A stretch of DNA of 64,000 bases from a virus: the IMG/VR virus record IMGVR_UViG_3300029214_000148. One strand, written 5' to 3'. Positions within the stretch are counted from its first letter, which is position 1, and each line of letters opens with the position of its first letter. Positions 34,583-52,412 of this stretch are shown here, in pieces. A program made the position numbers and the translations under genes. The notes below the pieces were generated by a model, which had not been told where the DNA came from, searched no databases, and saw only the letters and a list, made by a program, of their open reading frames with translations.

Positions 34583-34583
34583 G

Positions 34584-35485: not shown

Positions 35486-35489
35486 ATAA

Positions 35490-35728: not shown

Positions 35729-35733
35729 ATAAG

Positions 35734-35806: not shown

Positions 35807-35878
35807 AGCATGTGACGGGTCTCGAACCCGCCCGTCCTGCTTGGAAGGCAGGTGTGCCGCCAACAACACTTCACATGC
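35807..35878 (-). tRNA. tRNA-Gly (anticodon TCC)
   Basis: Acceptor GCATGTG/CACATGC perfect; anticodon stem CCTGC/GCAGG; loop CTTCCAA; A at position 8. Confidence 0.6.
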
Positions 35879-36431
35879 ATGCGGATAAAAGAAGTGCCTG
35901 TTTTCTCTTATCCATTCAGTTTTTTACCGCATCGCTGCGGAGTGGACAGGAGTGGTAACGATCCACCCTGTAAGGATTTTCAGTCCTTCGCTAATCCATC
36001 TCAGCTACCTGTCCATGGCTTTTTCTGCAATAAAAAAGCCGCATCAAGAAATTTCCTCTTCTCTCTGCGGTCATCTGCGTTTTGCAATATTTCGGTTTTA
36101 AGTGCCTGGTTTAAAATCGAAATCGACCGCGGGAAGGTGTATCATAATAGTTCTGTCCCCATGTTTTCCCGGATTTTGAGCATGAGAAACTAAACATATT
36201 GCTGAAATCGCCGTATGTTCTACAATCATTATTAAAATTTTTACTACTCATCATCTTTAACATGGTTTTCTTTTCCTTTCATTTTAATTAATGCTGGATA
36301 AACAAAAAGCCCGTCACTTAACTCAAAGCTACACATCCAAATAGCTCTGAGTTAAAAGACAGGCACTTCTTTTATCTCATGCACCTATCATATCATACTG
36401 ATCGTGAAGTGTCAACAGGAAATTTAAAAAA

Positions 36432-37289: not shown

Positions 37290-37622
37290 TTGGAATGTTT
37301 GACATGCAAGAAACACTGGTCGCAGGGAGGCCGCTATTCAGAGAACGTGAGAAACTGCCTGCATTATGAGGAAGAACCAAGAGGAAAAATGGTCCGCACA
37401 GAACTGTCTTTTCGTATGGATGCAGAGGCGGAAACTCCGGTGGTCAGATTTGGAGAGAAAATACTGGTTTCCGATGGTTCAAAAGCGGTCGAGATGACTG
37501 TGGTCAAGATCAACTGGGTTAATCTTCGGGATATGCTCTGCAATGTATCCGCGGATTATCATGAGAATGAGATGCCGCGATTTGAGAAAGAAAAGAAGTT
37601 CAAAGCATTACATGGAAAATAG
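37290..37622 (+). CDS. hypothetical protein
   Basis: 110 aa; TTG start after AGGAGGAGG; its stop abuts a small CRISPR array. Confidence 0.4.
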   Translation: MECLTCKKHWSQGGRYSENVRNCLHYEEEPRGKMVRTELSFRMDAEAETPVVRFGEKILVSDGSKAVEMTVVKINWVNLRDMLCNVSADYHENEMPRFEKEKKFKALHGK

Positions 37623-37728
37623 TTGCATTCCAGTGGAATGCATGGGGTGAAAGAAATAGGCAAATCGCATGACAATTTCTGAAATTAAATTGTTGCGCTC
37701 CCGTGGAGGGGGGCGTATGGATTGAAAT
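37622..37728 (+). CRISPR. small array, 2 degenerate repeats + 1 spacer, in the 3-prime UTR
   Basis: GTTGCATTCCAGTGGAATGCATGGGGTGAAAG / 38-nt spacer / GTTGCGCTCCCGTGGAGGGGGGCGTATGGATTGAAAT. Confidence 0.55.
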
Positions 37729-37875: not shown

Positions 37876-38058
37876 TCAACAAAAAAAGAATGCGGATTCT
37901 TCCGTTTTCATGCGGTCTAAAGCTTGCGCAGAAAAATATAAGGAATGGTGGAAGTCGCATCTTTGTGCCTCCTCATATGTATGGACTTCCTCTATTTTCC
38001 CATCGATCAGGCTGACACAGCCGGACCAGAACTCTTTTCCTTCGAATATTGCTGCCAT
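37876..38058 (-). CDS. small hypothetical protein
   Basis: 60 aa; GAAAGGAGCAAAAC-ATG with a family-2 promoter on the minus strand. Confidence 0.4.
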   Translation of the reverse strand: MAAIFEGKEFWSGCVSLIDGKIEEVHTYEEAQRCDFHHSLYFSAQALDRMKTEESAFFFC

Positions 38059-38135
38059 GTTTTGCTCCTTTCAAAATACTTTCGTTTACACTTTCAATAT
38101 GAAATGAAAATATTTCAAAACATTTCCAAAAACTT

Positions 38136-38162
38136 TTGACGATTTTTTAAATGGCGCAATAT
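38136..38162 (+). promoter_or_regulatory. family-1 conserved promoter
   Basis: TTGACGATTTTTTAAATGGCGCAATAT. Confidence 0.55.
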
Positions 38163-38335
38163 GTATCATGTAAAGGTCATAAACCGAGCTGCCAGGGTTA
38201 TCGGCTGGCAGAAATCTTTTCGATATTTGTTTACACTCCGGGGAAACCCGGAAGGGGTAGTGAGGACGCAGCGTGTGCTGTTTCCGGGTTCGATTCCCGG
38301 GTATCCCTTTTGACTGCCACATACGGTCTTCTCAA
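38163..38335 (+). ncRNA. conserved structured leader RNA, copy C
   Basis: same core as copies A and B; T-arm-like CCGGGTTCGATTCCCGGG; followed by about 250 nt of extra leader before the gene. Confidence 0.45.
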
Positions 38336-38589
38336 AATTCAGCCGTCTGCGGCCTGTGGAACTTTCCACTGGACCAAAATAACGATAACCGCCAGAATAA
38401 CAGCAGCGTGCGTTGGCGTGAGAACTATCGGCGCACAGGGATTACTCCTTTCATATTTATCTATCAAACCTTTCCGTACATCGTATGGAAAGGTTATGGG
38501 ACAGCAGGTGCATAGACATGAACTATTCCGGGATCGTTTCCCGGATGTTCCATTTTTAAAACATTAAAACAAATCATAGGAGGGAATTG

Positions 38590-39315
38590 ATGATGGAGAA
38601 AGAAGTAGTATATGTTGCAGAACTGGATTCCGATGTTGATGATGTCGTTGCGGCACATTACTTATTTAACGAGGGTGTGTTAAAGTGTGTAGTATGCGAT
38701 CCATATCCAAGAACACCGGAGGGGTTGGCACGAAAGGGAAAGCTGGAAGCGCTTGGCATCGATGTGGTTAAGAAAATGCCACCGGTTGCAAAATATGTGT
38801 TTGTTGGCGGCGCTCTTACGGCTGTTGCTGGCTATATCCGGATGCACCATGTCGACTGGCTGGTAATGAACGGAGGCTTTGTTGGAGCAAATATTGCGAC
38901 CTTTGAACTGGATAAGTTCAAGGGGAAGAACACTGTCCGTACCTTCAATTTCAACTGCGATGTTGTGGCTGCAGATACGGTTTTGAAAACTGATGAGAAG
39001 CATATTTCTCATATTGTTCTTGTCGGAAAAAACGTCTGCCATGACGTCCGAAATACGAAAAATGGTCTCTGGAGTGGCGAGAAATACAAGAAATTGTTCG
39101 ATGAGTACCGGGTTAAGGATGAGAAGCGTCAACACGACTTGCTTGCCTGCCATGAGGGGCTTGCATTTCTGCGGGGAACCAATGCGATCTGTGAGTATGA
39201 GATGGTAAGACCATACAACACAGGCTTGAATGGCAAGCTGACGCAGTGGGGTAGCACAAAAACCATGGAAACACCATATCGCGAAGTGCTTGCTGCTGTT
39301 GGCTACCAGAATTAA
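38590..39315 (+). CDS. hypothetical protein, possible nucleoside-hydrolase-like fold
   Basis: N-terminal VYVAELDSDVDDVVAA loosely resembles the aspartate-cluster motif of nucleoside hydrolases; strong RBS AGGAGGG. Confidence 0.35.
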   Translation: MMEKEVVYVAELDSDVDDVVAAHYLFNEGVLKCVVCDPYPRTPEGLARKGKLEALGIDVVKKMPPVAKYVFVGGALTAVAGYIRMHHVDWLVMNGGFVGANIATFELDKFKGKNTVRTFNFNCDVVAADTVLKTDEKHISHIVLVGKNVCHDVRNTKNGLWSGEKYKKLFDEYRVKDEKRQHDLLACHEGLAFLRGTNAICEYEMVRPYNTGLNGKLTQWGSTKTMETPYREVLAAVGYQN

Positions 39316-39317
39316 AA

Positions 39318-39422
39318 GCTGCATCATGTGCGGGGGTGTATGGATTGAAATGTCGGAGTATGGTGTAAGAATCATATATATTCCTACGTTGTGCTCCTCC
39401 CGGTTGGTGCATGGGTTGAAAT
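39318..39422 (+). CRISPR. small array, 2 degenerate repeats + 1 spacer, in the 3-prime UTR
   Basis: GCTGCATCATGTGCGGGGGTGTATGGATTGAAAT / 36-nt spacer / GTTGTGCTCCTCCCGGTTGGTGCATGGGTTGAAAT. Confidence 0.5.
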
Positions 39423-39653
39423 ATAGTTCTAAAAATGGTTGGAAGACCTGTTTTTTGGTTACACCCATTGTCAGCTGTAAACCACAGTTAAGGCTTTCGG
39501 ATGCGGTTAAAGTTTAAAAAGGCAACACCGCCAGATGGCTGTTCCTTTCGCGCCCTGAGATCAAGAAATCATTATGGGGCGGGCACTTACCAAATGAACT
39601 TGAAAGAAAGATCTACGTGGAATCCATGATCCACAGGACAAAGGATAATCCCA

Positions 39654-40010
39654 TTGTCCTTTATGACTTTGATGACAGGTTTTACCAGTGCATGTACATG
39701 CTCCACTATGCGTGAAGATGGCACAGTCGCTGAAAGACGGTTCTTAAAACTCCCGGCAGAATACGACTCTCTGCAACATAAGATCGATCATATCAAACGT
39801 GCACGGCACCATGGTTCCAGACGTGTTTCAAACCTCTGGGCATATGCAGACGACGTCAATAAAGACATTGTTGTAAAAACAGCCCAGTTTGTTACGGATA
39901 CTGCCGTGCTGCATGTTAACAGCATGCAGTTGCGGTGTTATCACTGTGTCCTCAGTCAGCGAGTCCATACGGGAAAACAGGTATGGAAGCACGCGAATTT
40001 AGTCATGTGA
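39654..40010 (+). CDS. hypothetical ORF (weak)
   Basis: 118 aa; poor RBS. Confidence 0.2.
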   Translation: MSFMTLMTGFTSACTCSTMREDGTVAERRFLKLPAEYDSLQHKIDHIKRARHHGSRRVSNLWAYADDVNKDIVVKTAQFVTDTAVLHVNSMQLRCYHCVLSQRVHTGKQVWKHANLVM

Positions 40011-40120
40011 GACTTCACGGCCGGCCGCCGAAAGGACGTACACTACAAAAGCCTTTTGCACCTGACTTTTCTGTGGTATACTGAAAATATAAAAGATATT
40101 TCAAGGAGAAGGCAGAGAAA

Positions 40121-40993
40121 ATGAGAAAAAGTGTGAAAGATTTTGGAAATTTTGTAAGAAAAGACAATTACCCGGAGCTTCCAGAAGAATTGAAAGAATT
40201 TAACTATTTTTTGAGTGATGGCGAGACGGGACATGTGATCATGGCTGTGCCTGAGCACACTTTGAATAAAGCAGAAGAAAATGGGGATGAACTGGATGAT
40301 TACGAATGTCCAGTTCCAGTGGCATATGTTCTTAAGAATGGCTATCGGCTGTATAAGAACCATGTAATATGCCAGGTTCCGTACGATGAGAAACTGGGGA
40401 TGCGTATTCCGGAAGAATATTACGAACCGTCGATTATTTCTACAGATGCCGGGGAAGCAGAGAATCCGGTGTCCGGAGAGTTCCCTTATGAGAAAAGGAA
40501 ATGCTATCCAGAATTTGCAAACCATGCAGAAGCTGTAGTTGCGGATATCGTTAAGGATTACGTGCAGATCCGCGTATTTTTTAAAAATCCTACAGAAAAC
40601 GAGATTGCACAGTTTTCTCCGGATGCCAGACTGAAAATTCGTTTTACGGAGATGGATGGAACCTGTCTGTTTACCGTTAAAGCTGGTGATTTGTCATGGA
40701 TGGATGCACCATACCATGCAAAACTTGCAAAAGATTTGTCTGGATTCGACTTTACAGGTGAAAGTGAGATTCCGTTATATCTCCTCCTGATCGACTCATC
40801 GAATGGTGAGGTCAAAGCGGTTCGAAATGTCCAGTTGTCAGAAGAGTTTTCCAGCAAATTGAGAAATCTGGTGGATCGTCAGGTCAACTCTGATTTTGAT
40901 AAAAAGAAATATGCGGATATATTGTCCAACATTTATCTCCTTTTTTCATCGGATGAGCTGGCGGATGCCAGCACCATTAAGTGTCAGTGGTAG
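40121..40993 (+). CDS. hypothetical protein
   Basis: 290 aa; AAGGAGAAGG RBS; followed directly by a small array then a terminator. Confidence 0.5.
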   Translation: MRKSVKDFGNFVRKDNYPELPEELKEFNYFLSDGETGHVIMAVPEHTLNKAEENGDELDDYECPVPVAYVLKNGYRLYKNHVICQVPYDEKLGMRIPEEYYEPSIISTDAGEAENPVSGEFPYEKRKCYPEFANHAEAVVADIVKDYVQIRVFFKNPTENEIAQFSPDARLKIRFTEMDGTCLFTVKAGDLSWMDAPYHAKLAKDLSGFDFTGESEIPLYLLLIDSSNGEVKAVRNVQLSEEFSSKLRNLVDRQVNSDFDKKKYADILSNIYLLFSSDELADASTIKCQW

Positions 40994-41013
40994 GTAAGAA
41001 GATATACTTTACT

Positions 41014-41232
41014 GTTGCGCCCCATTGGGTGCATGGGTTGAAATCTTTATGACCTTCTGAAAAGTGAGGGCATCTTAGTTGCACCCCCGCAAGGGATGTA
41101 TGGGTTGAAATTCAATAGAAACAGATGCATTCGAAGGCGTTACAAGTTGCACCCCGCGAGGGGTGTATGGGTTGAAATTGCAGAAAGCTCAGGATTGGAA
41201 GGTTGCATCCTATGGGATGCATGGATTGAAAC
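41014..41232 (+). CRISPR. small array, 4 degenerate repeats + 3 spacers
   Basis: repeats at 41014, 41078, 41146, 41202; spacer 2 (TCAATAGAAACAGATGCATTCGAAGGCGTTACAA) matches spacer 2 at 24044 with 2 mismatches. Confidence 0.7.
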
Positions 41233-41271
41233 GAACATATTTGTTATTATTTATTATTGAGATCAGAAAGG

Positions 41272-41308
41272 TCTGCAGTCAGTTAATCTGGCTGCAGATT
41301 TTTTTTTG
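41272..41308 (+). terminator. rho-independent terminator after the array
   Basis: TCTGCAGTCAGTTAATCTGGCTGCAGA + T9. Confidence 0.65.
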
Positions 41309-41336
41309 CAATTTTTTAAAAATTTTCCAAAATCTT

Positions 41337-41363
41337 TTGACGATTTTTTAAAAGGCGCAATAT
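41337..41363 (+). promoter_or_regulatory. family-1 conserved promoter
   Basis: TTGACGATTTTTTAAAAGGCGCAATAT. Confidence 0.5.
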
Positions 41364-41598
41364 ACATATTGAAGGGATAAACAGGGGCTTACCGTTTGTT
41401 TCTTCAATAAGAGTTTTTCTCTTATATGCCTCCTTAAGTTTCCTGCGCTGCATTTACAGCATTTTGGCAGCGCAGGGGGAATCCACAGGACTGCATTTGA
41501 CGTTGTGTGGCGGCCTGCTCATCCGGTTCAACCCCGGAGGATTCCCATACCGCTTATTTTTGCGGAGACAAAAATTTTAAAAAATATTCAAAAATTCT

Positions 41599-41625
41599 TT
41601 GACGATTTTTTTAAAGGCGCAATAT
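41599..41625 (+). promoter_or_regulatory. family-1 conserved promoter upstream of the cas operon
   Basis: TTGACGATTTTTTTAAAGGCGCAATAT; leader shares GAAGGAATAAACAGGGGCTTGCCG with the 41337 copy. Confidence 0.55.
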
Positions 41626-41678
41626 GTGTATTGAAGGAATAAACAGGGGCTTGCCGCTGTTGATTACCAGAGTTAAAA

Positions 41679-41707
41679 GTTGTGCCCCTATGGGGTGCAT
41701 GGGTAAT
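41679..41707 (+). repeat. solo degenerate CRISPR repeat in the cas5 5-prime UTR
   Basis: GTTGTGCCCCTATGGGGTGCATGGGTAAT; hairpin retained, 3-prime handle degenerate. Confidence 0.5.
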
Positions 41708-41718
41708 AAGAGAAAGGA

Positions 41719-42393
41719 ATGGAAAAAGAAAAAATGGGAGTGAAACTAAAAGTCTGGGGAGATTACGCATTGTTCACCAGACCAGAACTGAAAACTGAAC
41801 GGTATACATACGATGTGATGACACCGTCGGCGGCTAGAGGAATTCTGGAATCTATCTACTGGCATCCGGGACTTCGGTGGTATGTAGACAAGATTCATGT
41901 ATTAAATCCGATTGCCACTACGAGCGTGAGAAGAAATGAACTTCTCAGTAAGATACCAAAGTCAAATATGCTGCAGGCATACAACGGCGGGGATGTGAAA
42001 CTGTATAACTCGTCAAGAGACGATATTATCCAGAGGGCATCTGTTATTCTCCGGGATGTCTGCTATGTGATTGAGGCGCATTTTGAAATGACAGGGAAAG
42101 CGAGCCCAACAGACAGCCCGGCAAAGTTTATAAGTATCTTTAACAACAGGGCAAGAAAAGGGGCATGTTATTCGATGCCGTATTTTGGTGTAAGGGAATT
42201 CCCGGCACACTTTGAACTCTGCGAAGGAGATGAAAAGATCCCATCCTACTATGAAGGACTTTCGGATAAGGATCTCGGGCTGATGCTTTATGATCTGGAT
42301 TACTCCTGCGGTAGAGATATCCAGCCAATGTATTATCATGCGATTATGAAAAACGGCGTTATTGACGTTGGGAACAGTGAGGTGCTTCGATGA
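41719..42393 (+). CDS. cas5: Cas5c (Cas5d), type I-C
   Basis: KLKVWGDYALFTRPELKTERYTYDVMTPSAARGILESIYWHP matches the Cas5d N-terminal signature. Confidence 0.85.
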   Translation: MEKEKMGVKLKVWGDYALFTRPELKTERYTYDVMTPSAARGILESIYWHPGLRWYVDKIHVLNPIATTSVRRNELLSKIPKSNMLQAYNGGDVKLYNSSRDDIIQRASVILRDVCYVIEAHFEMTGKASPTDSPAKFISIFNNRARKGACYSMPYFGVREFPAHFELCEGDEKIPSYYEGLSDKDLGLMLYDLDYSCGRDIQPMYYHAIMKNGVIDVGNSEVLR

Positions 42394-44129
42394 TCTTTCA
42401 GTCACTTGTGAAATTATATGAAACACTTGCGGATCAGGGAAAAGTGTCCCGTCCTGGCTGGTGTAATGCAAAGGTATCCTATGCGGTGGTTTTAAACCAT
42501 GATGGGACGATTAAAGATATTGTTTCCGTGAAACAGAAAGTGAAGAGAGGAAAGAAGACTGTTGAAATTCCAATAATTATGCAGGTTCCAGAGATGGTCA
42601 CCCGCGCTAACAACATTGCCTCCAGCTTTCTCTGCGAAAATGCAAAGTATCTCTTTGGAATTGACGAAAAGATGAGTTTGCGTACACTGGAATGTTTTAA
42701 GGCGGCAAAGAAAAAACATCTTGATATTCTTGATGTTGTGGATTCACCTGTAGCACAGACGGTATGTAACTTTTTCCGTTCATGGGATCCGGAACAGGCG
42801 TTGGATCAACCGGCTGTTGCAAAACTTGCAGAAGAGTTTTATAAAGGCGGAAACCTCGTTTTTGAAGTAGATGGGGAATATGTGCATGATGATGAAGAAG
42901 TCCGCAGGGCATGGATGGATTACAGCAGTGTACCATATGAAATGGTAACTGGAAGATGCCTTATTACTGGAGAGGAAGCGGAGATTGCCCGCACGCACGG
43001 GAAAATCAAAGGAGTTCCGGGAGCACAGTCATCTGGCGCGTCGCTTGTATCATTTAACGGAGCATCCCTTGAGTCTTATGAAAAAACACAGAGCTACAAC
43101 GCGCCGATTAGCACCTATGCGGCGTATGCATATGTGACCGCGCTGAATTACTTGCTTTCTACGGACGGGTATCACAGCAAGGTAGGAGATTCCATGGTGG
43201 TTTTCTGGACAGATTCCGGGGATGTGGATGATGTGAGCAGACTGCGGAAGATGATGGGAAATATCAATGAAAAGGATCACACCCTTACAGATACGGATGA
43301 AAAACTGTACGTCCTCTGCCTTGCACCAAATGCCGGGCGAATTGCAGTCCGGTTCTTCTATGAGGATGCGATCGGGGCAATCTGGGAAAACCTGTCCGAA
43401 CATGCCAGCCGGATGAAGATTGTAAAACCAGTATTTGAGGATCAAGAATTTATCAATATCTGGCAGATGCTCATGGAGACAGTCAACCAGAATCTTACAG
43501 ATAAAACACCTGTCCCGCATATGTCAGCAATGACGTTACAGTCAGTCATTTCGGATACACCGTATCCGCAGAGTCTGTATGCAGGTGTGTTATCTCGTAT
43601 CCGCGCGGAGCACAAAGGTGTTACTTACAGAAAAGCATCGATTATTAAAGCTTTTTTAATAAAGAACTACAAATGGGAGGAAGGAAAAAATATGGAAGCA
43701 TTAAATGAAGGCTGTAAGGATCGGGCATATATCCTTGGAAGACTGTTTGCGGTTATGGAAAAGGCACAGAAAGAAGCAGTTGGCAATATCAACCAGACAA
43801 TTTGTGATAAGTTTTACAATTCCGCGTGCACAACACCAAGATCGATCTTTCCAGTACTGATCAGGCTATCTAACAGTCATTTAAGTAAGTTGAAACGGAC
43901 AAAACCGGGGAGAGGATATTATTTTACAGCTAAAATGCAGGATTTAATGGATAAAATTCCGGTAACAGATGATGATCCGGGATTTCCGCGGCGTTTCTCA
44001 TATGAGGATCAGGGTAAGTTTGCACTTGGTTATTATCATCAGATGCGGGCGGAATATACAAGCAGTAAGTTAAAAGATAATGATTCAGAAGGTGATCAGA
44101 CAAATGCAGAGAATATGGAGGAAAACTAA
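42390..44129 (+). CDS. cas8c: Cas8c (Csd1), type I-C large subunit
   Basis: 579 aa between cas5c and cas7c; N-terminus MIFQSLVKLYETL typical of Csd1. Confidence 0.7.
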   Translation: MIFQSLVKLYETLADQGKVSRPGWCNAKVSYAVVLNHDGTIKDIVSVKQKVKRGKKTVEIPIIMQVPEMVTRANNIASSFLCENAKYLFGIDEKMSLRTLECFKAAKKKHLDILDVVDSPVAQTVCNFFRSWDPEQALDQPAVAKLAEEFYKGGNLVFEVDGEYVHDDEEVRRAWMDYSSVPYEMVTGRCLITGEEAEIARTHGKIKGVPGAQSSGASLVSFNGASLESYEKTQSYNAPISTYAAYAYVTALNYLLSTDGYHSKVGDSMVVFWTDSGDVDDVSRLRKMMGNINEKDHTLTDTDEKLYVLCLAPNAGRIAVRFFYEDAIGAIWENLSEHASRMKIVKPVFEDQEFINIWQMLMETVNQNLTDKTPVPHMSAMTLQSVISDTPYPQSLYAGVLSRIRAEHKGVTYRKASIIKAFLIKNYKWEEGKNMEALNEGCKDRAYILGRLFAVMEKAQKEAVGNINQTICDKFYNSACTTPRSIFPVLIRLSNSHLSKLKRTKPGRGYYFTAKMQDLMDKIPVTDDDPGFPRRFSYEDQGKFALGYYHQMRAEYTSSKLKDNDSEGDQTNAENMEEN

Positions 44130-44130
44130 G

Positions 44131-45042
44131 ATGAGCACACCAATTAAGAACAGATATGATTTCGTAGTATTATTCGACGTAGAGAATGGAAATCCGAACG
44201 GTGATCCGGATGCCGGAAATATGCCGAGAGTTGATCCAGAGACTGGCATCGGGCTTGTGACAGATGCCTGCATAAAGCGCAAGATCCGTAACTATGTGGA
44301 AACTGTAAAAGAAGATGCAGCCGGGTTCAAGATCTATATTAAAGAGGGGGTCCCGCTGAACCGGAGTGACCTTAAGGCAGTCGAAAGTCTTGGTATTGAC
44401 GTCGGTGACGACAAAAATGCACTTGAAGATGTAAAGAAGCTGAAAAAGACAGATGAAGATGTGGATCTTAAGCTCCGTGACTATATGTGTAGTAATTTCT
44501 ATGATATCCGTACATTTGGTGCTGTCTTGACTACCTTTACAAAGGCGGCATTAAACTGTGGGCAGGTACGTGGCCCGGTACAGATTGGTTTTGCAAAAAG
44601 TATTGATCCTGTTTTCAGCCAGGATATTACTGTAACCAGAGTTGCAATCACAACGGAAAAGGATGCGGAAAAGAAAAATACAGAAATGGGAAGAAAGAGT
44701 ATTATTCCTTATGGACTTTACCGTGTGGAGGGATATATTTCTGCTAATCTTGCCCGTAAGACCACCGGCTTTTCTGAAGACGATCTGGAACTGCTTTGGG
44801 AAGCAATCATTAACATGTTTGAGAATGACCATTCCGCAGCACGCGGGAAGATGGCAGTGCGTGAGCTCATCGTATTCAAGCATAACAGCGAGCTTGGCAA
44901 TTGTCCATCGTACAAACTGTTTGAAACTGTTGATGTTAAGAAGAATGATGGTGTTGAGTTTCCTCGTAAATATTCCGATTATGCAGTGACTATTCATGAG
45001 GATGCGATTCCGGATGGCGTGACAATGACTCGCAAAATCTAA
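44131..45042 (+). CDS. cas7: Cas7c (Csd2), type I-C
   Basis: VLFDVENGNPNGDPDAGNMPRVDPETGIGLVTDACIKRKIRNY is the Csd2 signature; start ATG after TGGAGGAAAACTAAG. Confidence 0.85.
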   Translation: MSTPIKNRYDFVVLFDVENGNPNGDPDAGNMPRVDPETGIGLVTDACIKRKIRNYVETVKEDAAGFKIYIKEGVPLNRSDLKAVESLGIDVGDDKNALEDVKKLKKTDEDVDLKLRDYMCSNFYDIRTFGAVLTTFTKAALNCGQVRGPVQIGFAKSIDPVFSQDITVTRVAITTEKDAEKKNTEMGRKSIIPYGLYRVEGYISANLARKTTGFSEDDLELLWEAIINMFENDHSAARGKMAVRELIVFKHNSELGNCPSYKLFETVDVKKNDGVEFPRKYSDYAVTIHEDAIPDGVTMTRKI

Positions 45043-45292
45043 AAAGATTTCCAGAGATTACAAGGCAACCCGCGTTTTGCGGGCTGCATCTGCTTGGGTT
45101 ATGCCGAAATGTAGAATTCCGGTGCGAACTGAAAGCTTACATAGCTTCTCTAGGAGACTCGCACCGGAAATGGAGGTATTAGTGTACAAATAGAACACAA
45201 AACCCAACTGTATAAGGCCGTTTGAGAACAATTAATTAGAGGAATTGTTTATATTTTGGCGATCGGGAGAGTTGTTTCTGTTCACTTTTACA

Positions 45293-46069
45293 GCTACGCC
45301 CCATGGAGGGCGTATGGATTGAAAATTGTATAGCCATCCCTGACAGCTTCCTCATTAGACGCTACGCCCCATGGAGGGCGTATGGATTGAAAATCTATAC
45401 TCTATTATGTGATGTACTAATGTCGCTGCTACGCCCCATGGAGGGCGTATGGATTGAAAATGATTGTTATTGGTTTTTATTCATGGAGAGGAAAGCTACG
45501 CCCCATGGAGGGGCGTATGGATTGAAAAGTAAGGTTTCGTCTCGAAGCCTTTATTCTGTTTTGCTGCGCCCCATGGAGGGGCGTATGGATTGAAATACCA
45601 AAATCTTTTGACATTCTTATAAATGGTAACAGCTACGTCTTATGGGGTACGTATGGATTGAAATCATAATAATTGTAGAGATCTCAATACAAAATAAAGC
45701 TGCGTCTCATGGAATACGTATGGATTGAAATGAAAAGGCGAGTTTGCGAAAGCAGATATTGGAATGTTGCGTCTCGTGGAGTACGTATGGATTGAAATTC
45801 CAACTTTAACTACATAACTATCCTGATAAACTTGCTGCACCCCATGGATAGTGTATGGATTGAAATTTAAAAAATCATGGATAACATCTGCGATAAGACG
45901 TTGCACCTCGCTAGGGGTGTATGGGTTGAAATTTCCATAATCGGTAGCCAATTATTATCATTAGGTGTTGCACCCCATAGAGGGTGTATGGATTGAAATT
46001 ATATAAAAATGATGAATATGTAAAAAAAATAAAAGAGTTACGCTCCATGGAGTGCGTATGGCTTGAAAC
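45293..46069 (+). CRISPR. type I-C-like array, 12 repeats in three repeat subfamilies, 11 spacers
   Basis: Repeats every 66-70 nt. Subfamily 1: GCTACGCCCCATGGAGGGCGTATGGATTGAAAAT (R1-R5). Subfamily 2: GCTGCGTCTCATGGAATACGTATGGATTGAAAT (R6-R8). Subfamily 3: GTTGCACCCCATAGAGGGTGTATGGATTGAAAT (R9-R11). R12 is degenerate. 3-prime handle GTATGGATTGAAAT conserved throughout. Confidence 0.8.
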
Positions 46070-46139
46070 CTCTTATTTTTTAAAAGATATCACGATTACA
46101 CCCAAAGTGGGCTTACGTAAATTTAAAGGAGAAAAGTAC

Positions 46140-46787
46140 ATGTCAAAAACAAAAGGAATATCAAAAAAGAAAGATGTATTAAAGGTATTTTGGAATGAGT
46201 GTGCAGTATTTAAGGTAGTTGTTTGTATTCTTGCGTATGTGATACTCGGCTTTATCAATATACCAATTAACAGGTGGCTTACATTTCATGTACCTAAATG
46301 GTCAGATGGGAAACTACATGATATAACAGGATCATTTTTTGTTCTTCCCATCCTTGAAGTATTAGCGGTCACTTTAATTTATCTTATCGCTAATGGATGC
46401 TTTTATTTCATCAGCAAGATGATCGCGTACAGGAATTACTGTTACATTCCGCTTACGGAAGATGAAATTAAAGGAAAGAAATTTAAGAATGCAAATGAGT
46501 ATTTTTCCTATGTCCTCAATGTCCTTTCCTATGGTTTTAAGAATGAAAAAGAAAATCTCCAGGTTAGTGATGATGATCTTCGAGAAATGCTTATAACTTG
46601 TCTGATTGTATTCCCTGATAATGGGACAATATTTCAGATAAAACCAGAAACTGCGTGGAATGTTTCAGACGACATCCTTTTCTCCGAAGCCGTTGAATTG
46701 AATTGCGGAAAAGCAGAAATAATTGATAAGCATGTTGTATTGTCTGGTGATAATAGAAACGGCAAAAGAGAAGAATATACAGTGTGA
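46140..46787 (+). CDS. two-helix membrane protein, paralog family A
   Basis: 215 aa; MSKTKGISKKKDVLKVFWNECAVFKV..FINIPINRWLTF; paralog of 24344; immediately downstream of the large array. Confidence 0.55.
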   Translation: MSKTKGISKKKDVLKVFWNECAVFKVVVCILAYVILGFINIPINRWLTFHVPKWSDGKLHDITGSFFVLPILEVLAVTLIYLIANGCFYFISKMIAYRNYCYIPLTEDEIKGKKFKNANEYFSYVLNVLSYGFKNEKENLQVSDDDLREMLITCLIVFPDNGTIFQIKPETAWNVSDDILFSEAVELNCGKAEIIDKHVVLSGDNRNGKREEYTV

Positions 46788-46838
46788 AAGTTGATAGGTC
46801 CTCATTCGAATTTTTTATCAAATTATGGAGGAATGGCA

Positions 46839-47363
46839 ATGGAAACAATAAGAGATTACGAAGCAATGGTATACGTACTTGAACATAACCGGAAAAGTGC
46901 CGGAACAGGTGAAAATATCAGTTGGAAGAAAATATCATATGAAAAGTTAAGTAAAGAGATGAAAAGCTATACCGGACGGATTAAGCGTATGCTTGGAGAA
47001 CTTATATTAAACGGACGGATAGAGATTAAAACAGAACGTCCTTTTGTTTACCGTGTTCTTATTAAATCCGTGTTTACAGAAGAAGAATTTAAGGAATACC
47101 AGGATACCCGTCTTCTTGGAAAATTCCATGACTCATTATCAAAATTAACTGATACTGTGGAAACTGCTTCCGAAACAGTACAAGCTGTTTGGCGTCCAAG
47201 TGAAGCTATGCAGAAACGCCAGACGGGTGCGGGGAATACGTTTGTGTATAGCAAAGGGAATTCTTTAAGCGTGCATGAGAGTTTTGAACGGTCAAAACAG
47301 AACCGGGAATACCGGCCGGCAGGAGAAAAGGCAGGAAAGAGAAAAGCTGTAACGATATGGTAA
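46839..47363 (+). CDS. hypothetical protein with basic C-terminus
   Basis: second ATG 8 nt after GGAGG. Confidence 0.45.
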   Translation: METIRDYEAMVYVLEHNRKSAGTGENISWKKISYEKLSKEMKSYTGRIKRMLGELILNGRIEIKTERPFVYRVLIKSVFTEEEFKEYQDTRLLGKFHDSLSKLTDTVETASETVQAVWRPSEAMQKRQTGAGNTFVYSKGNSLSVHESFERSKQNREYRPAGEKAGKRKAVTIW

Positions 47364-47391
47364 TTAAAAAGTAGGAAGGAAGTGAAGCGGA

Positions 47392-47856
47392 ATGTATGGT
47401 CTTATTATTAAGAAAAAATGGTTGGATTTAATCATGAGCGGGCAGAAGACTCTGGAGATCCGCGGAAGCAGGACTTCCCATGCAGGAGAAGAGATTGCGC
47501 TTCTCGAAAGCGGATCACAGAAGATCCGTGGTTTTTGTACGATTAAAGAAGTAACGGCCTTGGATAAAGGAAAATGGGAAGCACACAGGGATCGCCATTG
47601 CGTGGATGTGCCGTGGGAAAATCTTATTAAACGATATAAGACGCCATATGCGTGGCACTTATCTTCAATCACACCAACGGAGGAACTTACATATGAGCAT
47701 CCAAAGGGTGCCGTGATCTGGGTTAACCTGGATCATGTTCCTGTATTTAAAAAAATGAACAATAAAGGAAGAAATTGTCATGAACAAATCAAGGGAACCA
47801 GCTTGCACAAATATTTCATCTCGGGAGGGTTCTATGGAAAATATCATAACTTATAA
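47392..47856 (+). CDS. ASCH domain protein
   Basis: IKKKWLDLIMSGQKTLEIRGS is a typical ASCH N-terminal beta-barrel signature. Confidence 0.55.
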   Translation: MYGLIIKKKWLDLIMSGQKTLEIRGSRTSHAGEEIALLESGSQKIRGFCTIKEVTALDKGKWEAHRDRHCVDVPWENLIKRYKTPYAWHLSSITPTEELTYEHPKGAVIWVNLDHVPVFKKMNNKGRNCHEQIKGTSLHKYFISGGFYGKYHNL

Positions 47857-48238
47857 AACGACAAACTTATTTTCAACACCAGATCTGGTTTCTCTTTTCA
47901 CATCTGTTGGATGGGTTAATGAAAGTGCAGAATATCCTAATCGATTGGAAAATGCAATGTATCATTCAGATATTGTTTTTAGCGCATGGGACGGAGATAA
48001 GCTTGTTGGTTTATTAAGTACCATAAGTGATACAATGCATGTTTATATAACATATCTTCTAGTCGATCCATCTTATCAAAATAGAAAGATAGGTACTAAA
48101 TTGTTAAATATGTTTGAAAAACATTATGTTAATTACAAAAAAGAACTTAAAACGGAGAAAGCATCAGATTATTATAAACGCTTTGGGTGGCATTCGGATT
48201 CTGTGGGGATGGTTAAGAATGATCTTCCCCCTTTATGA
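47834..48238 (+). CDS. GNAT family N-acetyltransferase
   Basis: ATG after GGGAGGG; motif A-like LLVDPSYQNRKIGTKLL. Confidence 0.6.
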   Translation: MENIITYKTTNLFSTPDLVSLFTSVGWVNESAEYPNRLENAMYHSDIVFSAWDGDKLVGLLSTISDTMHVYITYLLVDPSYQNRKIGTKLLNMFEKHYVNYKKELKTEKASDYYKRFGWHSDSVGMVKNDLPPL

Positions 48239-48393
48239 TTATTGATTCTTAACAAATGCACCAATTGCGAAGTAGAAGGAGACGCAAATGTCATATATGA
48301 GTGAGTGGATTTATTCCGAAGAAGATGCATATTTTATTATTTTAGCAGTTGCTGATATTGTAACAGGGATTTCAACACTTGGAGGTTTTAACC

Positions 48394-48819
48394 ATGAATA
48401 ACGTTGTATTGATAATTATAGCTATTGCCACAACATTTGTAATTGATAAAGTATTTGATGATGTTCTAAGTCCTGCTGCAAAGTTTATTGTGACATTGTT
48501 GACGATATTGTTTTTCGTTTTTATTTATGTTTTTGGACAGTATGCAGCGGGTTCTGCCACTGCTGAACTACACAAATTTGTAGAACAACTTGATACGGAA
48601 CAGCAGAATCAGGTAGTTGAGACAGAAAAACAAGCTAATCCAAAAAAGCAAACAAGAAAAGAGCAGGAAGAGAAATTACATAAACTTGCCGCATCTGGTA
48701 AAGCGAAGATTGTAATAGATGGTGAACCGACAAGTGATGAGTTTGATATTGATGGCATTAAATTAAAAGATTATGATATCAAATTTAAGAATGGAAAAGT
48801 CTATTTGATATCAAAATAG
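48394..48819 (+). CDS. membrane protein with conserved C-terminal module (paralog of 59698)
   Basis: shared C-terminus D.DGI.L..Y.IK.K.GK.YLI.K; ATG after GGAGG. Confidence 0.45.
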   Translation: MNNVVLIIIAIATTFVIDKVFDDVLSPAAKFIVTLLTILFFVFIYVFGQYAAGSATAELHKFVEQLDTEQQNQVVETEKQANPKKQTRKEQEEKLHKLAASGKAKIVIDGEPTSDEFDIDGIKLKDYDIKFKNGKVYLISK

Positions 48820-49056
48820 GAAGCTATTACTATGTATTTCATTACTCTTATCTAAGTTTTGTTAGAATTAAAGAGGTTTGTCATGCCTATTGTTTTGAGC
48901 GTCATTATAGTATTTATGGGTAATTCAGAATGGGTATCCTGCAAGAATTGTAATAGAAAAATCTGAGGCTATTAATTCATTATTCTTTCCTAAAAATACA
49001 GAAGTCAAAGATTAGATTATTCTTGCAAAAATGCATTTAAGGAGGAACAAATTTTA

Positions 49057-49545
49057 ATGAATACGTTGGAAAATTTAGAAATGGTATTGTTTGACTTTGA
49101 TGATACGCTGTGCATACATAATCATCGCTCGGATGCTTATGAGGAAATGATGGAATATTTGTCATATATTCATTCAGGTGAAACATTTCCAAAATCATGG
49201 AATAAATCAAAACCGAATTTGCAGTTAAAGAAATTCATGGATTATCTTGCTTATAAGAATATCCCTATGGGTTTAATCAGCGGAGTGCGTGATTGTAAGA
49301 CTGCGGAAAGAAAGATCAAATGGGTTAAAGAAAATTACGGTTATTTACTGGAAAATTACTGTGTATCCAGTCAGGAACAGAAGATCATTGAACTTAAGGT
49401 CCTTGCAAAGGTTAACAGGCTTCATGAAAACCAGATTGCTATTATCGACGATTTGTATCCCAATCTTGAAAAAGCAGAAAGTGAGGGATTCGTTGCTCTT
49501 TCACCAATGCAGATTGTCAATATGTTCAATGAAGTATCTGAGTAG
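49057..49545 (+). CDS. HAD-superfamily hydrolase, deoxyribonucleotidase-like
   Basis: motif I MVLFDFDDTL; motif IV-like IIDDL. Confidence 0.55.
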   Translation: MNTLENLEMVLFDFDDTLCIHNHRSDAYEEMMEYLSYIHSGETFPKSWNKSKPNLQLKKFMDYLAYKNIPMGLISGVRDCKTAERKIKWVKENYGYLLENYCVSSQEQKIIELKVLAKVNRLHENQIAIIDDLYPNLEKAESEGFVALSPMQIVNMFNEVSE

Positions 49546-49713
49546 AAGTCTGCTGCAAGGATTATTCCATGCAAGATATGTTGAGAGATAATTTGTTGAA
49601 TTAGAGGTGATTATATTGGATTTATTTGGAAGAGATTTATGAACCCAAGCAGATGAAGATTTTTTAGGTAGAAAGTGTTATTTGTTGCAGAGTACGGTTG
49701 GAAGGGGATTTTA

Positions 49714-50520
49714 ATGAATAAGTTGGAAAATTTAAAAATGGTATTGTTTGACTTTGATGATACATTGGCTGTACATAGTCAAGGACATCGCATAAGCGAT
49801 CATCTGATGAAATATATGATTAACGTGCATTCTGGAAGTAAAGAATTATGGAATACCTCGAAACCGAATTTACAATTAAAAAAATTCATGGATTATCTTG
49901 CCTATAAGAATATCCCTATGGGATTGATTAGTGGAGTACATGATTGTAAAGCCGCGGAAAGAAAAATCGAATGGGTCAAAGAAAACTATGGGTATTCATT
50001 AGAGAATTATTGTGTATCCAGTCAAGAACAGAAGATGATTGAATTATCAACCATTGCAGAGGTTAATGGATTTCATGAAAGCCAGATTGCTCTTGTTGAT
50101 GACTACTATGAAAATCTCGGAAATGCTGAAAAAATGGGATTTACAACATTTTCTCCTATGGAAATTGTTAATTTGGTTAATTGCTTTCAAAAATCCTGGG
50201 GGGGGAAGATAAATTTACGAAATAAATACATATTCTGGGATATAGACGGCACTTTAGCGGCATACCGGTTTAACGGGCATGTTTCAGATCCGGAAGGTAC
50301 CGATAATGGTATGAGTTTAAAAGAAATCGAGGATGGGGTTTTATCGGAAGACAAATCAAAAGCAGATACCATTTTGCAATACTGTAAGGATCATGATATT
50401 AGCTTGCAAGATGTGGTATTTGTTGATGACACGATTCCATTTCTCCGCGAAGCAGAGCGAAAAGGGATTAAATCATTTCATATCAGCAGTTTTTTGGATT
50501 GGGATTTCGAAAGGAGGTAA
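49714..50520 (+). CDS. tandem HAD-domain hydrolase
   Basis: first domain paralogous to 49057 (MVLFDFDDTL); second DxDGT motif IFWDIDGTL in the C-terminal half. Confidence 0.55.
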   Translation: MNKLENLKMVLFDFDDTLAVHSQGHRISDHLMKYMINVHSGSKELWNTSKPNLQLKKFMDYLAYKNIPMGLISGVHDCKAAERKIEWVKENYGYSLENYCVSSQEQKMIELSTIAEVNGFHESQIALVDDYYENLGNAEKMGFTTFSPMEIVNLVNCFQKSWGGKINLRNKYIFWDIDGTLAAYRFNGHVSDPEGTDNGMSLKEIEDGVLSEDKSKADTILQYCKDHDISLQDVVFVDDTIPFLREAERKGIKSFHISSFLDWDFERR

Positions 50521-50524: not shown

Positions 50525-51592
50525 ATGGATTTATGTATTGACTACAACTTGTTGTTTGCAGAATTAAAGAAACATGGTTTCTGCCTTGGTTTTTCAACAA
50601 TTGAGAATGTTGCGCTTTCAAAGGATCAGGTGGATTACTGGCATCGTGGCAATTTCATTTGTTGTGTAAAATCAAAGGGATTAATTGCAACTTATGTATG
50701 CTTTATTACTGGTGATGAATTGAAAGATGAATTCTCTACTTATAAGAGTGTTCATGAGTATTTGAATTTCACAGATACTATAGAAGCTCAGCGGAGACCA
50801 TCAATCATTAAAGCATTTGAAAACGTTTTATTTGCCAGTTATTCTGATGCAGTTGCTAAATATAATCAGATGCTTGCTGTTTTTCCAAAATTTACACCAG
50901 CATTTAAAGAATTGTTTGCAGAAGAAATGGATGCTCTTGCAGTATCTAATACGTCAATTCAGGTTAAACCTGATTTGTCTAAAATTTATATAAATAAAGA
51001 GCATGAATATTGTTACATCTCAGCTGTTACACCGGATAGTGTTTGTGTTAACCGGCTCACCGCTGTATCTTTTGAAAAAGAGCTGGATTATCGTGAATTG
51101 CAGCAATACACTGCCGTTCCAGAAGTTTTTGACGAATTACGTTCACTTCTGTTAACAGTATTACACGGTCTTTCTTCTGTTATCAAGATAAATAATCTGC
51201 CTGAAGATAACAGTGTTTCTTTGAAATATTATAATGAAACCGATGAATTCCGTGATACAAGATATACTGCAGTTGGTCAAAATTTCGAATTGATACTTAT
51301 CAATATGCTTGGTGCTTCCTGTTATTTGAGTGATAAGTCTCGTACACATGATTCAGATAATAAGTGTCACGCATACGATATTGCTGATGTTTTTTCAGCA
51401 AATGCTAAAGCCAAACGTATTCATGATTTTCTTGTAAAACTCATGAAAGAGTTTGCGCCTATTTTAGCAGGTGACCTGGCATTGCGGAAGCAGCTTTTCG
51501 ATTATTTGTATACACTTGAGGATGGTGATAATTCCGTTAATGCGCAGCAACCAGGGTTGCCAGATAATACGGATTCTTTGCCTCATAAATAG
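50525..51592 (+). CDS. hypothetical protein
   Basis: 355 aa; GGAGGTAACATA RBS. Confidence 0.5.
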   Translation: MDLCIDYNLLFAELKKHGFCLGFSTIENVALSKDQVDYWHRGNFICCVKSKGLIATYVCFITGDELKDEFSTYKSVHEYLNFTDTIEAQRRPSIIKAFENVLFASYSDAVAKYNQMLAVFPKFTPAFKELFAEEMDALAVSNTSIQVKPDLSKIYINKEHEYCYISAVTPDSVCVNRLTAVSFEKELDYRELQQYTAVPEVFDELRSLLLTVLHGLSSVIKINNLPEDNSVSLKYYNETDEFRDTRYTAVGQNFELILINMLGASCYLSDKSRTHDSDNKCHAYDIADVFSANAKAKRIHDFLVKLMKEFAPILAGDLALRKQLFDYLYTLEDGDNSVNAQQPGLPDNTDSLPHK

Positions 51593-51620
51593 GAAGAAAA
51601 AGGAGGAAAATAATTGCGAT

Positions 51621-52412
51621 ATGTATACTAAAATATATGCTATTTTTACGACAGTGGTTAAATATTTTATTCTGGCGTGTGGTATATCCTTATTACTATT
51701 TTTCTTTTATGATAATGAATTAGAACCAACAAAAGACAATATTAAATGTGTAGTTAGCATAATATATATGAATTTATTAACTGCAGTAGTAATTACATAT
51801 TTATTTAAAAAATTAATTGGTAGTATTAAGGAAGACGTTGTAAATGCAAAGCCGTATGGAAAAGCGCAAATAGGAAATAAAGAAAAAACGTATGAGAATA
51901 TAAGAGAAATGATTACTGTTCACGAAGCAGGTCATGCAGTAATGTCTTATTTAAAAAATGCAGATACAATTATTGTGAATGCTTCTCTTTGCGAACCCAA
52001 TGTAGTATCGGGATATGATAGCGTAGTAAATGCAGAAGTTGTGAAAAGCATGATACTTATTAAATACGCAGGAGCAATAGCAGAAGAATTAATATTTGGA
52101 CATTATAGTGCAGGTTCTTTTTTCGGATCTAATTCAGATAATTCAGATTTTAAACGTGCGACGGAATTAATTAAGGGCTACATTACTATGATTAATCCAG
52201 AACGGAGCAAAACACTATTAGATGACGAACTGAAAGATCAACTTATAGATATATCAAAAGCTTTTTATCAAGAATGCAAAGAATTACTTAGCTGTAATAT
52301 AAAATTAGTTGAACATTTATCTAATGTATTGACATACAAAGAAAGATTAACCACAGAAGAAGTACTTGAGATAATAAATGCTTTCAAGGAGAGCAAAGAA
52401 ATAAATACTTAA
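51621..52412 (+). CDS. membrane-anchored M41 (FtsH-type) zinc peptidase domain protein lacking the AAA module
   Basis: HEAGHAV zinc site; GAIAEELIFG and SNSDNSDFKRAT mirror the FtsH protease domain; single N-terminal membrane helix. Confidence 0.55.
   Translation: MYTKIYAIFTTVVKYFILACGISLLLFFFYDNELEPTKDNIKCVVSIIYMNLLTAVVITYLFKKLIGSIKEDVVNAKPYGKAQIGNKEKTYENIREMITVHEAGHAVMSYLKNADTIIVNASLCEPNVVSGYDSVVNAEVVKSMILIKYAGAIAEELIFGHYSAGSFFGSNSDNSDFKRATELIKGYITMINPERSKTLLDDELKDQLIDISKAFYQECKELLSCNIKLVEHLSNVLTYKERLTTEEVLEIINAFKESKEINT

Follow-up and report, generated by a model that had tools for sequence, protein, structure and literature searches.

What can a CRISPR effector complex do when no gene for its nuclease lies beside it? 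We met this question in a 64,000-nucleotide stretch of DNA, IMG/VR virus record IMGVR_UViG_3300029214_000148. The whole stretch is referred to here as the window. It probably derives from a conjugative megaplasmid of the human gut, and it carries a type I-C Cascade operon, cas5c-cas8c-cas7c, with no cas3 and no adaptation genes in the region that we covered. A first-pass annotation of the letters had proposed that such a complex can only silence its targets. Our results point to a functional minimal type I-C surveillance module, comprising Cas5c, Cas8c/Cas11c, Cas7c and five arrays, that binds without cutting. We rate the chances of this reading as about even.

The module is compact, with three genes in 3.3 kb, all on the plus strand. 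The first, cas5c (41719-42393), encodes a Cas5d-type endonuclease that cleaves the precursor of CRISPR RNA (crRNA) and binds the repeat-derived handle (Pfam PF09704, E=2e-38). Its product can be aligned from end to end with Cas5c of D. vulgaris (PDB 8dex, E=2e-65). Next is cas8c, or Csd1, for the large subunit (42390-44129; PF09709, E=1e-165; PDB 8dej and 8g9t). The third gene, cas7c or Csd2 (44131-45042; PF05107, E=8.5e-108), encodes the backbone subunit, and its translation contains the motif NPNGDPD. Each of the three proteins aligns full-length to subunits of solved type I-C Cascades. In the loop that reads the protospacer-adjacent motif (PAM), the window has RANN, D. vulgaris KGNG and N. 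lactamica RSGS. All three open reading frames (ORFs) are intact and translationally coupled; cas5 and cas8c overlap by ATGA, and the junction between cas8c and cas7 is TAAGATG. There is also a predicted internal cas11c frame within cas8c (43692-44129, plus strand). It starts at Met435, and its ATG is preceded by the Shine-Dalgarno-like sequence GGAGGAAGGA. The corresponding 145 C-terminal residues of Cas8c align to Cas11c chains 7kha_K and 8g9s_H in a PDB search. Hence, the I-C small subunit, which is made by internal translation, appears to be provided for.

We compared the module with its relatives. The closest are complete chromosomal Roseburia-type I-C loci with the order cas3-x-x-cas5-cas8c-cas7-cas4-cas1-cas2-array. 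Identity between the window and Roseburia is 78% for Cas7, 62% for Cas5 and 51% for Cas8c. Two other lineages resemble the window in having no Cas3, Cas1, Cas2 or Cas4 near the module, which makes three lineages in all. One of these, L015, is 91% identical to the window in Cas7 and 87% in Cas8c. The other, L016 (ERZ1106929 NODE-133, 84.7 kb), is deeply diverged. It has the permuted order cas7-array-cas5-cas8c, eight identical repeats and a Cas8c that is only 37% identical. Between the window and the L015 lineage, dN/dS (the ratio of nonsynonymous to synonymous substitution rates) is 0.046 for cas7 and 0.072 for cas8c, at a dS of about 0.9. Such low ratios argue against decay, and the two sequences indicate that cas7 and cas8c are under strong purifying selection. 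Cas8c belongs to a 90% identity cluster of 366 members; the next matches are chromosomal Lachnospiraceae proteins that are about 50% identical. An index of the assembly collection has this exact Cas8c in 198 blocks, which stem from human-gut metagenomes.

Both of these lineages have peculiarities of their own. In L015 (2174-5563, minus strand), an unrelated N-terminal region of 650 residues with no detectable domain is joined in frame to Cas8c residues 107-579. No cas5 lies upstream; the locus may have been disrupted, or the fusion may be a new form of Cas8c. The L016 module sits two genes 3' of a 1771-residue protein that combines an Eco57I-type methylase with a superfamily 2 helicase, and of a helix-turn-helix gene.

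We searched for the missing genes in several ways. According to Pfam, none of the 58 window ORFs scanned has an HD, Cas3, Cas1, Cas2 or Cas4 domain. Cas3, Cas4, Cas1 and Cas2 from the closest loci (L006 and L007) were then used as phmmer --max queries against 1196 six-frame segments of at least 30 residues. The best E values were 0.12 for Cas3 (two queries) and, to short unrelated segments, 0.62 for Cas4, 0.04 for Cas1 and 0.24 for Cas2. The positive controls, Cas5 and Cas7, returned 1e-94 and 1e-162. Both Cas3 queries had the same non-significant top match (E ~0.1), the ORF at 20550-21080. In PADLOC, run on 143 ORFs, the only cas families were Cas5c, Cas8c and Cas7c among the 25 of 144 families listed, which by itself is no proof that Cas3 is absent. 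Precomputed Pfam annotation of the flanks, 10 kb upstream and ~8 kb downstream, contained no cas genes. Hence, the absence of cas3, cas4, cas1 and cas2 reported for the 64 kb extends to ~82 kb (the window and ~18 kb of flank). Set against a complete type I-C system, the locus has the effector genes, the repeat and the PAM; Cas3 and Cas4-Cas1-Cas2 are missing from it.

The window does encode a helicase (21472-23772). Pfam identifies only ResIII and Helicase_C in this protein, with no HD domain, as the first-pass annotation had stated. A PDB search describes it as RadD/XPB-like and gives no match to Cas3. We also considered a split Cas3 made of this helicase and a separate HD gene. The candidate was rejected, given the RadD/XPB-like character of the helicase and the lack of HD or PDB similarity in ORFs 19336-20193 and 20589-21083. 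The same helicase is probably the source of a PADLOC match to the DpdF model (1.5e-73).

The ~82 kb amount to ~23% of a replicon of ~357 kb, so cas3 or cas1-cas2 could lie elsewhere on it. The system would then be complete. The wide scatter of I-C repeats and arrays, which are dispersed over more than 45 kb, is consistent with this, since cas genes could be dispersed too. However, cas3 and cas4-cas1-cas2 directly flank Cascade in every related chromosomal locus, and none of them is found beside the module in three independent lineages. Moreover, the only large helicase of the window shows no Cas3 match in either the PDB or the phmmer --max search, and no HD protein was detected nearby. We consider it improbable that cas3 and/or cas4-cas1-cas2 reside elsewhere on the replicon.

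What does the module have to work with? In the main CRISPR array (45293-46069, plus strand), 12 repeats recur every 66-70 nt and enclose 11 spacers. The array is preceded by a leader of 250 nt (45043-45292, plus strand), the end of which (...TTTACA|G) is common to the window, L015 and L016. Repeats at the leader end are identical and distal repeats are degenerate. This is the 12-repeat array of the first-pass annotation, but it is not the sole array. Scattered over 22 kb there are also four mini-arrays, MA1 to MA4, and, in the cas5 leader, a hairpin that resembles a repeat. All of the mini-arrays are on the plus strand. MA1 (23947-24181, four repeats) has the RadD-like helicase gene on one side and ORF 24344-24982 on the other, and a promoter copy just 5' of it (23842-23868) transcribes it. 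In L015, the MA1 spacers are part of a single cas-adjacent array. MA2 (37620-37728, two repeats) overlaps the stop codon of ORF 37290-37622. MA3 (39318-39422, two repeats with weak hairpins) is directly 3' of the stop of ORF 38587-39315, and MA4 (41011-41232, four repeats) is directly 3' of ORF 40121-40993. Thus, MA2, MA3 and MA4 each start at the stop codon of a plasmid ORF or at most ~20 nt from it. A terminator-like hairpin with a T-run, read by eye, follows MA4 at approximately 41270-41310. Spacer 2 of MA4 matches the MA1 spacer at 24045-24078 with two mismatches. Finally, a solitary intergenic I-C repeat with a perfect hairpin and handle is present in L054 (17462-17495, or ~67.7 kb in window coordinates). 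It lies ~4 kb past the window end, so I-C repeats span at least 45 kb of the plasmid.

The repeats themselves look fit for processing. In 17 of the 24, a 7-8-bp hairpin ends exactly 11 nt before the end of the repeat, with several different stem sequences. This geometry is the same as in the D. vulgaris and Roseburia I-C repeats that Cas5c cleaves. Most repeats also have, 3' of the hairpin, the 11-nt handle with consensus ...TGGATTGAAAY. The last 11 nt of the Roseburia repeat GTCGCTCCCCTTGTGGGAGCGTGGATTGAAAT are identical to the handle TGGATTGAAAT of the plasmid main-array repeats.

Could the locus nevertheless be the decaying remnant of a captured I-C system, with a degraded array and no current function? 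Seven of the 24 repeats are without the canonical hairpin, the distal repeats have degenerated and mini-array spacers are irregular in length (21-42 nt). A preprint describes the repeat array of this plasmid type as apparently degraded (PMC12934698), and L015 lacks cas5 and the normal N-terminus of Cas8c. The genes tell against this. Their ORFs are intact and coupled, the internal cas11c start is kept, dN/dS is 0.05-0.07 and the proteins are near-identical across hundreds of assemblies. The first-pass annotation had named frameshifts as a sign of decay, and we saw none in the cas genes. Because hairpin geometry is kept in most repeats, the main array is better described as degenerate at its old end than as simply degraded. 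At the other end, repeats are identical, and the array continues to gain spacers whose targets are perfect and TTC-flanked. A remnant with no function is very unlikely.

Array growth was evident when copies of the locus from other samples were compared. Relative to the window and L001, which have no extra spacer, one has been added at the leader end in L002-L005, L014, L019 and L021, and two in L020. The spacer TACCGCAACAATTAAAGGCAATGAAAATCTTGTA is the first in the arrays of L002-L005, L014, L019 and L021, stands second in L020 behind a newer one, and is absent from the window and L001. New spacers occurred only at the leader end. Internal deletions and one duplication were also seen in the main array, and the mini-arrays were invariant. 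We conclude that the main array is still gaining spacers at its leader end in natural populations.

The targets of five spacers could be mapped. They belong to arrays of sister copies and other lineages, not to the 11 spacers of the window itself. All five match perfectly next to a 5'-TTC PAM; three hit gut phages and two hit an integrative and conjugative element (ICE). Among metagenome contigs, the TACCGCAACAATTAAAGGCAATGAAAATCTTGTA spacer has two true protospacers (L017 and L018; 34/34, TTC), both in ORF227. This ORF of 227 codons opens a conjugation module with the order ORF227-ORF117-...-coupling protein-ADP-ribosyltransferase-ParA, and in a relative the module has VirB4/TraC and a coupling protein. 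In L017, the ICE has inserted next to a phosphoglucomutase gene of the chromosome and an IS21-type transposase. The opposite strand of this ICE is targeted in ORF117, by spacer 3 of L016 (34/34, TTC). Hence, the two targeted ORFs are the first two genes, in the first operon, of the ICE. The TACCGCAACAATTAAAGGCAATGAAAATCTTGTA spacer also occurs at the leader end of the array in L016, the very distant Cas3-less module. As for phages, the newest L020 spacer matches 21 IMG/VR phage contigs (34/34; 7.6-48 kb, most of them 36-48 kb), with TTC in 21 of 21. L016 spacer 7 targets the same phage group, again with TTC. L016 spacer 2 matches five viral contigs within a tail gene next to Dit, with TTC in all five. 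One variant of the ICE (L022-L024) has TGC in place of TTC and changes at the first four seed positions, so that all four mismatches are PAM-proximal. This single case may represent escape from interference.

Other searches for targets were negative. Spacers gave no match in INPHARED (phages) or PLSDB (plasmids). IMG/VR contained no match for the TACCGCAACAATTAAAGGCAATGAAAATCTTGTA spacer, window spacers M1 and M2, the duplicated mini-array spacer or one L016 spacer. Two spacer scans of GTDB species genomes also returned nothing; hence, the plasmid is not among GTDB representatives and its host cannot be read from a genome there. Sister megaplasmids were considered as targets and rejected, because the VirB4 neighbourhoods of L009-L013 contained no match with eight or fewer mismatches. 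These relatives (VirB4 86%, 76% and 59% identical) have neither I-C repeats nor the promoter motif described below. Conversely, we compared 110 chromosomal Roseburia spacers with the plasmid and its targets. A single hit came up, a partial one of 23/24 nt in the phage group targeted by the L020 spacer, which falls short of a full protospacer.

The cas operon was said to stand behind the element's own promoter, and this is so. The 27-mer TTGACGATTTTTTAAAAGGCGCAATAT has seven plus-strand copies in the window, with none expected, and the copy at 41599-41625 is directly 5' of cas5. The others start at 23842, 30322, 33110, 37235, 38136 and 41337, with two more in L054 (15630 and 20062). On alignment, the core TTTGACG...GGCGCAATAT is invariant and an A/T-rich tract lies upstream. 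The copy at 41337-41363 drives an untranslated stretch of ~200 nt. The repeat-like hairpin in the 5' untranslated region of cas5 (41680-41712, plus strand) has repeat geometry, an 8-bp stem and a diverged handle (-11.6 kcal/mol). It may be the vestige of a terminal repeat, or else a site at which Cas5c processes RNA; in L016, the array is directly 5' of cas5. The plasmid encodes a sigma-70-family protein (5121-5849), which may read this promoter family.

These features allow another reading, in which the dispersed repeats are Cas5c processing sites in plasmid operons, and invariant guides or partial seeds tune the plasmid's own promoters. The placement of mini-arrays and solitary repeats, directly 3' of plasmid ORF stops and downstream of a plasmid promoter, is in keeping with this, as are their invariance between samples and the hairpin in the cas5 leader. 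Some spacers also resemble the plasmid in part. M5 (45597-45630) has a 15-nt seed and 24/34 identity to promoters P41337 and P38136 (41326-41359 and 38125-38158). It resembles a diverged member of the promoter family; its 15 consecutive identical bases span the -35 box, and no perfect target for it was found. M10 has an exact 15-nt PAM-proximal seed at 12701-12687, and in M9, 14 nt match where ORF 53962 has its start codon. Only 0.6% of shuffles yielded two matches of 15 nt or longer. Even so, no spacer matches the window within nine mismatches, the partial matches are flanked by TTT or ATG in place of TTC, and every spacer that could be mapped hits a foreign element. Homologous regions of the relatives contained no protospacer. 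Full self-targeting was therefore rejected, the M5, M9 and M10 seeds being unusual but without the TTC PAM. Regulation of the plasmid's own promoters is a highly doubtful account of the module. Of the two kinds of silencing target first suggested, competitors and the element's own genes, the former is borne out by at least one spacer family directed at a competing conjugative element. The latter is not.

How might the module act on foreign elements? In the reading that we favour, a host type I-C Cas1-Cas2-Cas4 complex would install new spacers in trans. The gain of TTC-flanked spacers at the leader end needs such a complex in trans, and acquisition probably proceeds via that of the host. Cas5c would process crRNAs from the main array and from the mini-arrays, the latter co-transcribed with plasmid operons that the plasmid's own promoter type would drive. 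Cascade would bind TTC-flanked targets and block transcription or replication without cutting. The plasmid could thereby restrain the chromosomal prophages and ICEs of its own host without killing that host. Silencing is favoured for the following reasons. The Cas3-less state is stable in deep lineages; it recurs in L016, which has one spacer and enemies in common with the window element. In type I-C, Cas8c mediates the recruitment of Cas3 (10.1101/2023.08.05.552134), and of the proteins here this docking subunit has diverged furthest. A plasmid that is transmissible has no assurance that its host will provide a matching Cas3. Finally, the mapped ICE is chromosomally integrated, and cutting it would kill the host of the plasmid.

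Several points weigh against silencing. A host with an I-C adaptation complex would normally have Cas3 as well, which the plasmid Cascade might recruit. Alternatively, a host Cascade might use the plasmid crRNAs. One of the phage protospacers is in a late tail gene and protospacers occur on both strands; this fits nuclease-based immunity, unlike promoter-directed silencing. From type I-E, binding alone is known to be generally weak against lytic phages. No target was mapped for the 11 main-array spacers of the window or for any mini-array spacer. The leader end of the plasmid is TTTACA|G, compared with TTGCT|G in the sampled Roseburia loci. In addition, we infer the host from binning labels of metagenome-assembled genomes (MAGs) and from protein similarity, and the part of the replicon covered is limited, as described above.

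The strongest rival holds that the nuclease is borrowed. The host would supply Cas3 together with Cas1-Cas2-Cas4, and targets would be degraded; or else host Cascade would be guided by plasmid crRNAs. In all sampled relatives, the I-C adaptation complex that is needed shares an operon with cas3. The Roseburia repeats have the identical 11-nt handle and the same hairpin geometry, and Roseburia Cas7 is 78% identical to that of the plasmid. The tail-gene target and the use of both strands fit degradation, and the PAM and seed changes in L022-L024 resemble escape from effective interference. Against this, Cas8c, the Cas3 recruiter (10.1101/2023.08.05.552134), is only 51% identical to its Roseburia counterpart and 37% between Cas3-less lineages. 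If it depended on a matching host Cas3, the module would not work in many hosts, which fits poorly with the strong conservation of the Cascade genes. A Cas3 attack on a chromosomal ICE or prophage, such as the integrated ICE of L017, would kill the plasmid's host, and the Cas3-less state has been stable in at least two deep lineages. A borrowed nuclease is a plausible explanation, though we lean towards thinking it incorrect.

These results bear on two statements in the first-pass annotation. The module was said to serve silencing "rather than immunity". Yet the mapped spacers, three against phages (including a tail gene) and two against an ICE, with TTC in every case, have the target spectrum of ordinary CRISPR immunity; that contrast is not upheld. 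The statement that Cascade "cannot recruit Cas3" went too far, given that leader-end gain needs Cas1-Cas2-Cas4 in trans and that the closest loci with the same handle, those of Roseburia, encode Cas3. A host cas3 or adaptation module with a matching repeat, which had been named as grounds for rejecting silencing, is thus a live possibility. The Roseburia loci share the 11-nt handle, and that such bacteria are the host is suggested by the labels and similarities given above.

A bolder version of the silencing reading can be put forward tentatively. Here, the Cas3-less Cascade would be the plasmid's programmable repressor. Hard-wired guides at operon 3' ends, released by Cas5c, would be combined with a growing array fed by the adaptation enzymes of the host. 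With the two, a gut megaplasmid of broad host range would silence, and not cut, prophages and ICEs that sit in the chromosome of any host it enters. The dispersed single repeats may then be Cas5c processing sites for plasmid mRNAs. Such a repressor would be the type I-C counterpart of type IV-A3, having arisen or been kept in at least two deep lineages with common enemies and one identical spacer. This version is possible, but we expect that it will more probably prove wrong in this form.

What carries the module? The window encodes PrgI, a VirB4-type ATPase, PcfJ, topoisomerase III, DNA methylases, a sigma factor, a penicillin-binding protein and 14 tRNA genes, and nearly all of its genes are on one strand. 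An identical VirB4 is present on 439 contigs from gut metagenomes, the longest being 360,627 and 375,736 bp. NCBI labels for MAGs that encode plasmid proteins are Roseburia faecis and Lachnospiraceae bacterium. A megablast search of known phages and plasmids with positions 38000-50000 gave no match. The Hodor conjugative megaplasmids average 357 kb and occur in Bacillota hosts of the human gut (Yuan et al. 2026 preprint, PMC12934698). The element resembles them in its human-gut origin, contigs of 360-376 kb, VirB4/PrgI conjugation region and I-C system with degenerate repeats. It differs in G+C content, ~41% in the window compared with 44.6-47.1% (PMC12934698). Hallmarks of Hodors are Rep_3, ParA/ParB/ParM, several sortases and a MOBH-like HD nuclease, with at least 90% nucleotide identity to G1/G2 (PMC12934698). 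Rep_3, ParA/ParB/ParM, sortases and the MOBH-like nuclease were not found in the window and its 18 kb of flank, apart from a weak ParA-like match at 151-1002. We conclude that the element is probably a Hodor, a Lachnospiraceae-associated conjugative megaplasmid of ~357 kb, by fit of features and not by sequence identity to a named Hodor.

The host element and the bare existence of I-C genes were thus already known (PMC12934698). The preprint gives the I-C system one sentence, in which the array is called apparently degraded, and is silent on the missing cas3 and adaptation genes, the mini-arrays, array dynamics and targets. In the literature that we searched, the architecture without Cas3 and adaptation genes, the mini-arrays, the acquisition of TTC spacers, the phage and ICE targets and the second deep lineage do not appear to have been described.

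A gene next to the main array deserves mention. orfX (46143-46787, plus strand) belongs to a family of two-transmembrane proteins of ~212 residues that begin MSKTKG[LI]SKKK.... Members are found 3' of MA1 (the paralog 24344-24982), of the main array and of the L015 array (L015 57-290). The L015 homolog, at the end of that locus, is 46% identical over 78 aligned residues. Neither orfX nor its paralog has a Pfam or PHROG match. The gene could be part of a duplicated array-plus-gene module or an unrecognised accessory gene, and its membership of the system is uncertain.

Several other genes of the window were noted. A full-length HEARO RNA (Rfam RF02033, 115.6 bits) is directly 5' of a 418-residue RRXRR+HNH protein, forming an IscB/omega-RNA (OMEGA) unit at 54526-56102. 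The IscB gene (54846-56102) is the sole RNA-guided transposon-type gene in the window; related plasmids L009 and L011 also have IscB- and Cas12f/TnpB-like genes. A cluster of 13 tRNA genes (34509-36014) is on the minus strand, opposite to nearly all protein genes, and a tRNA-Met gene lies apart (52778-52852). This is unusual plasmid cargo. The region 51471-53916 holds a peptidase M41-like gene and, after it, one for an AAA ATPase. The ATPase is probably the source of a PADLOC match to the IetA model (E=3e-51); if so, the two genes may be a defence pair of the IetAS kind. Next to the ParA-like gene and a dUTPase gene, the window further encodes a class A penicillin-binding protein with transglycosylase and transpeptidase domains (895 residues, 999-3686). 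Tandem paralogs occur twice. Two HAD-like proteins encoded at 49057-50520 have near-identical N-terminal halves, and two ORFs of ~206 codons at 62341-63584 have repeated segments, for example one 21-mer at 62600 and 63202.

Finally, we compared the module with known systems. It shares with canonical type I-C, as in D. vulgaris, N. lactamica and Roseburia, the same Cas5c, Cas8c with internal Cas11c, and Cas7c. Also shared are a 32-33-nt repeat with a hairpin and the 11-nt handle TGGATTGAAAT, spacers of 33-37 nt, the TTC PAM and growth at the leader end. In contrast, neither cas3 nor cas4-cas1-cas2 adjoins Cascade here, although all sampled relatives have both. The dispersed mini-arrays, the conjugative megaplasmid carrier and the plasmid-specific promoter are further differences.

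CRISPR-associated transposons (CASTs; types I-F3, I-B and, as reported, I-C) are Cas3-less type I modules, sometimes with atypical repeats around privileged guides. Like them, the plasmid keeps a Cascade-only type I module on a mobile element. Unlike theirs, its spacers target phages and an ICE, not a homing site. A CAST was rejected, as no TnsA, TnsB, TnsC, TniQ or transposase was present in Pfam scans of the window ORFs.

There is also an I-C variant, described in 2020 from huge phages. It too is a Cas5d-like I-C derivative on a very large mobile element, without Cas1, Cas2 or Cas3 (PMC7162821). However, that locus has a helicase gene in place of cas3 (PMC7162821), and the element here is a plasmid. 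Pfam found no helicase domain in the genes that flank the cas operon; the RadD-like helicase is 18 kb upstream, adjoining MA1.

The closest functional parallel may be type IV-A3. These systems are found on large conjugative plasmids, without an adaptation module or nuclease (Benz et al., 10.1101/2023.06.23.546257). They acquire spacers in trans from a co-resident type I system of the same PAM, using host I-E Cas1/2, and target other mobile elements; silencing without cutting is proposed to spare the host (10.1101/2023.06.23.546257). By analogy, the module described here would work most like type IV-A3, with none of its proteins in common. Its proteins are type I-C, Csf1-Csf2-Csf3-Csf5 are not among them, and no DinG was found. 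Many of the mapped targets here are phages, and both in-trans adaptation and silencing are, for this module, inferences. So far, nuclease-free plasmid CRISPR has been understood mainly from type IV-A. If our interpretation is correct, a type I-C Cascade stripped of Cas3 and adaptation genes, yet still re-armed in nature, provides a second, unrelated route to binding without cutting, which would make this a general strategy of mobile elements. Since the element is very common in gut metagenomes (Cas8c in 198 blocks, VirB4 on 439 contigs), it would shape the traffic of phages, ICEs and plasmids in Lachnospiraceae. A compact three-gene module with a known PAM could also be a natural tool for CRISPR interference in gut Firmicutes.

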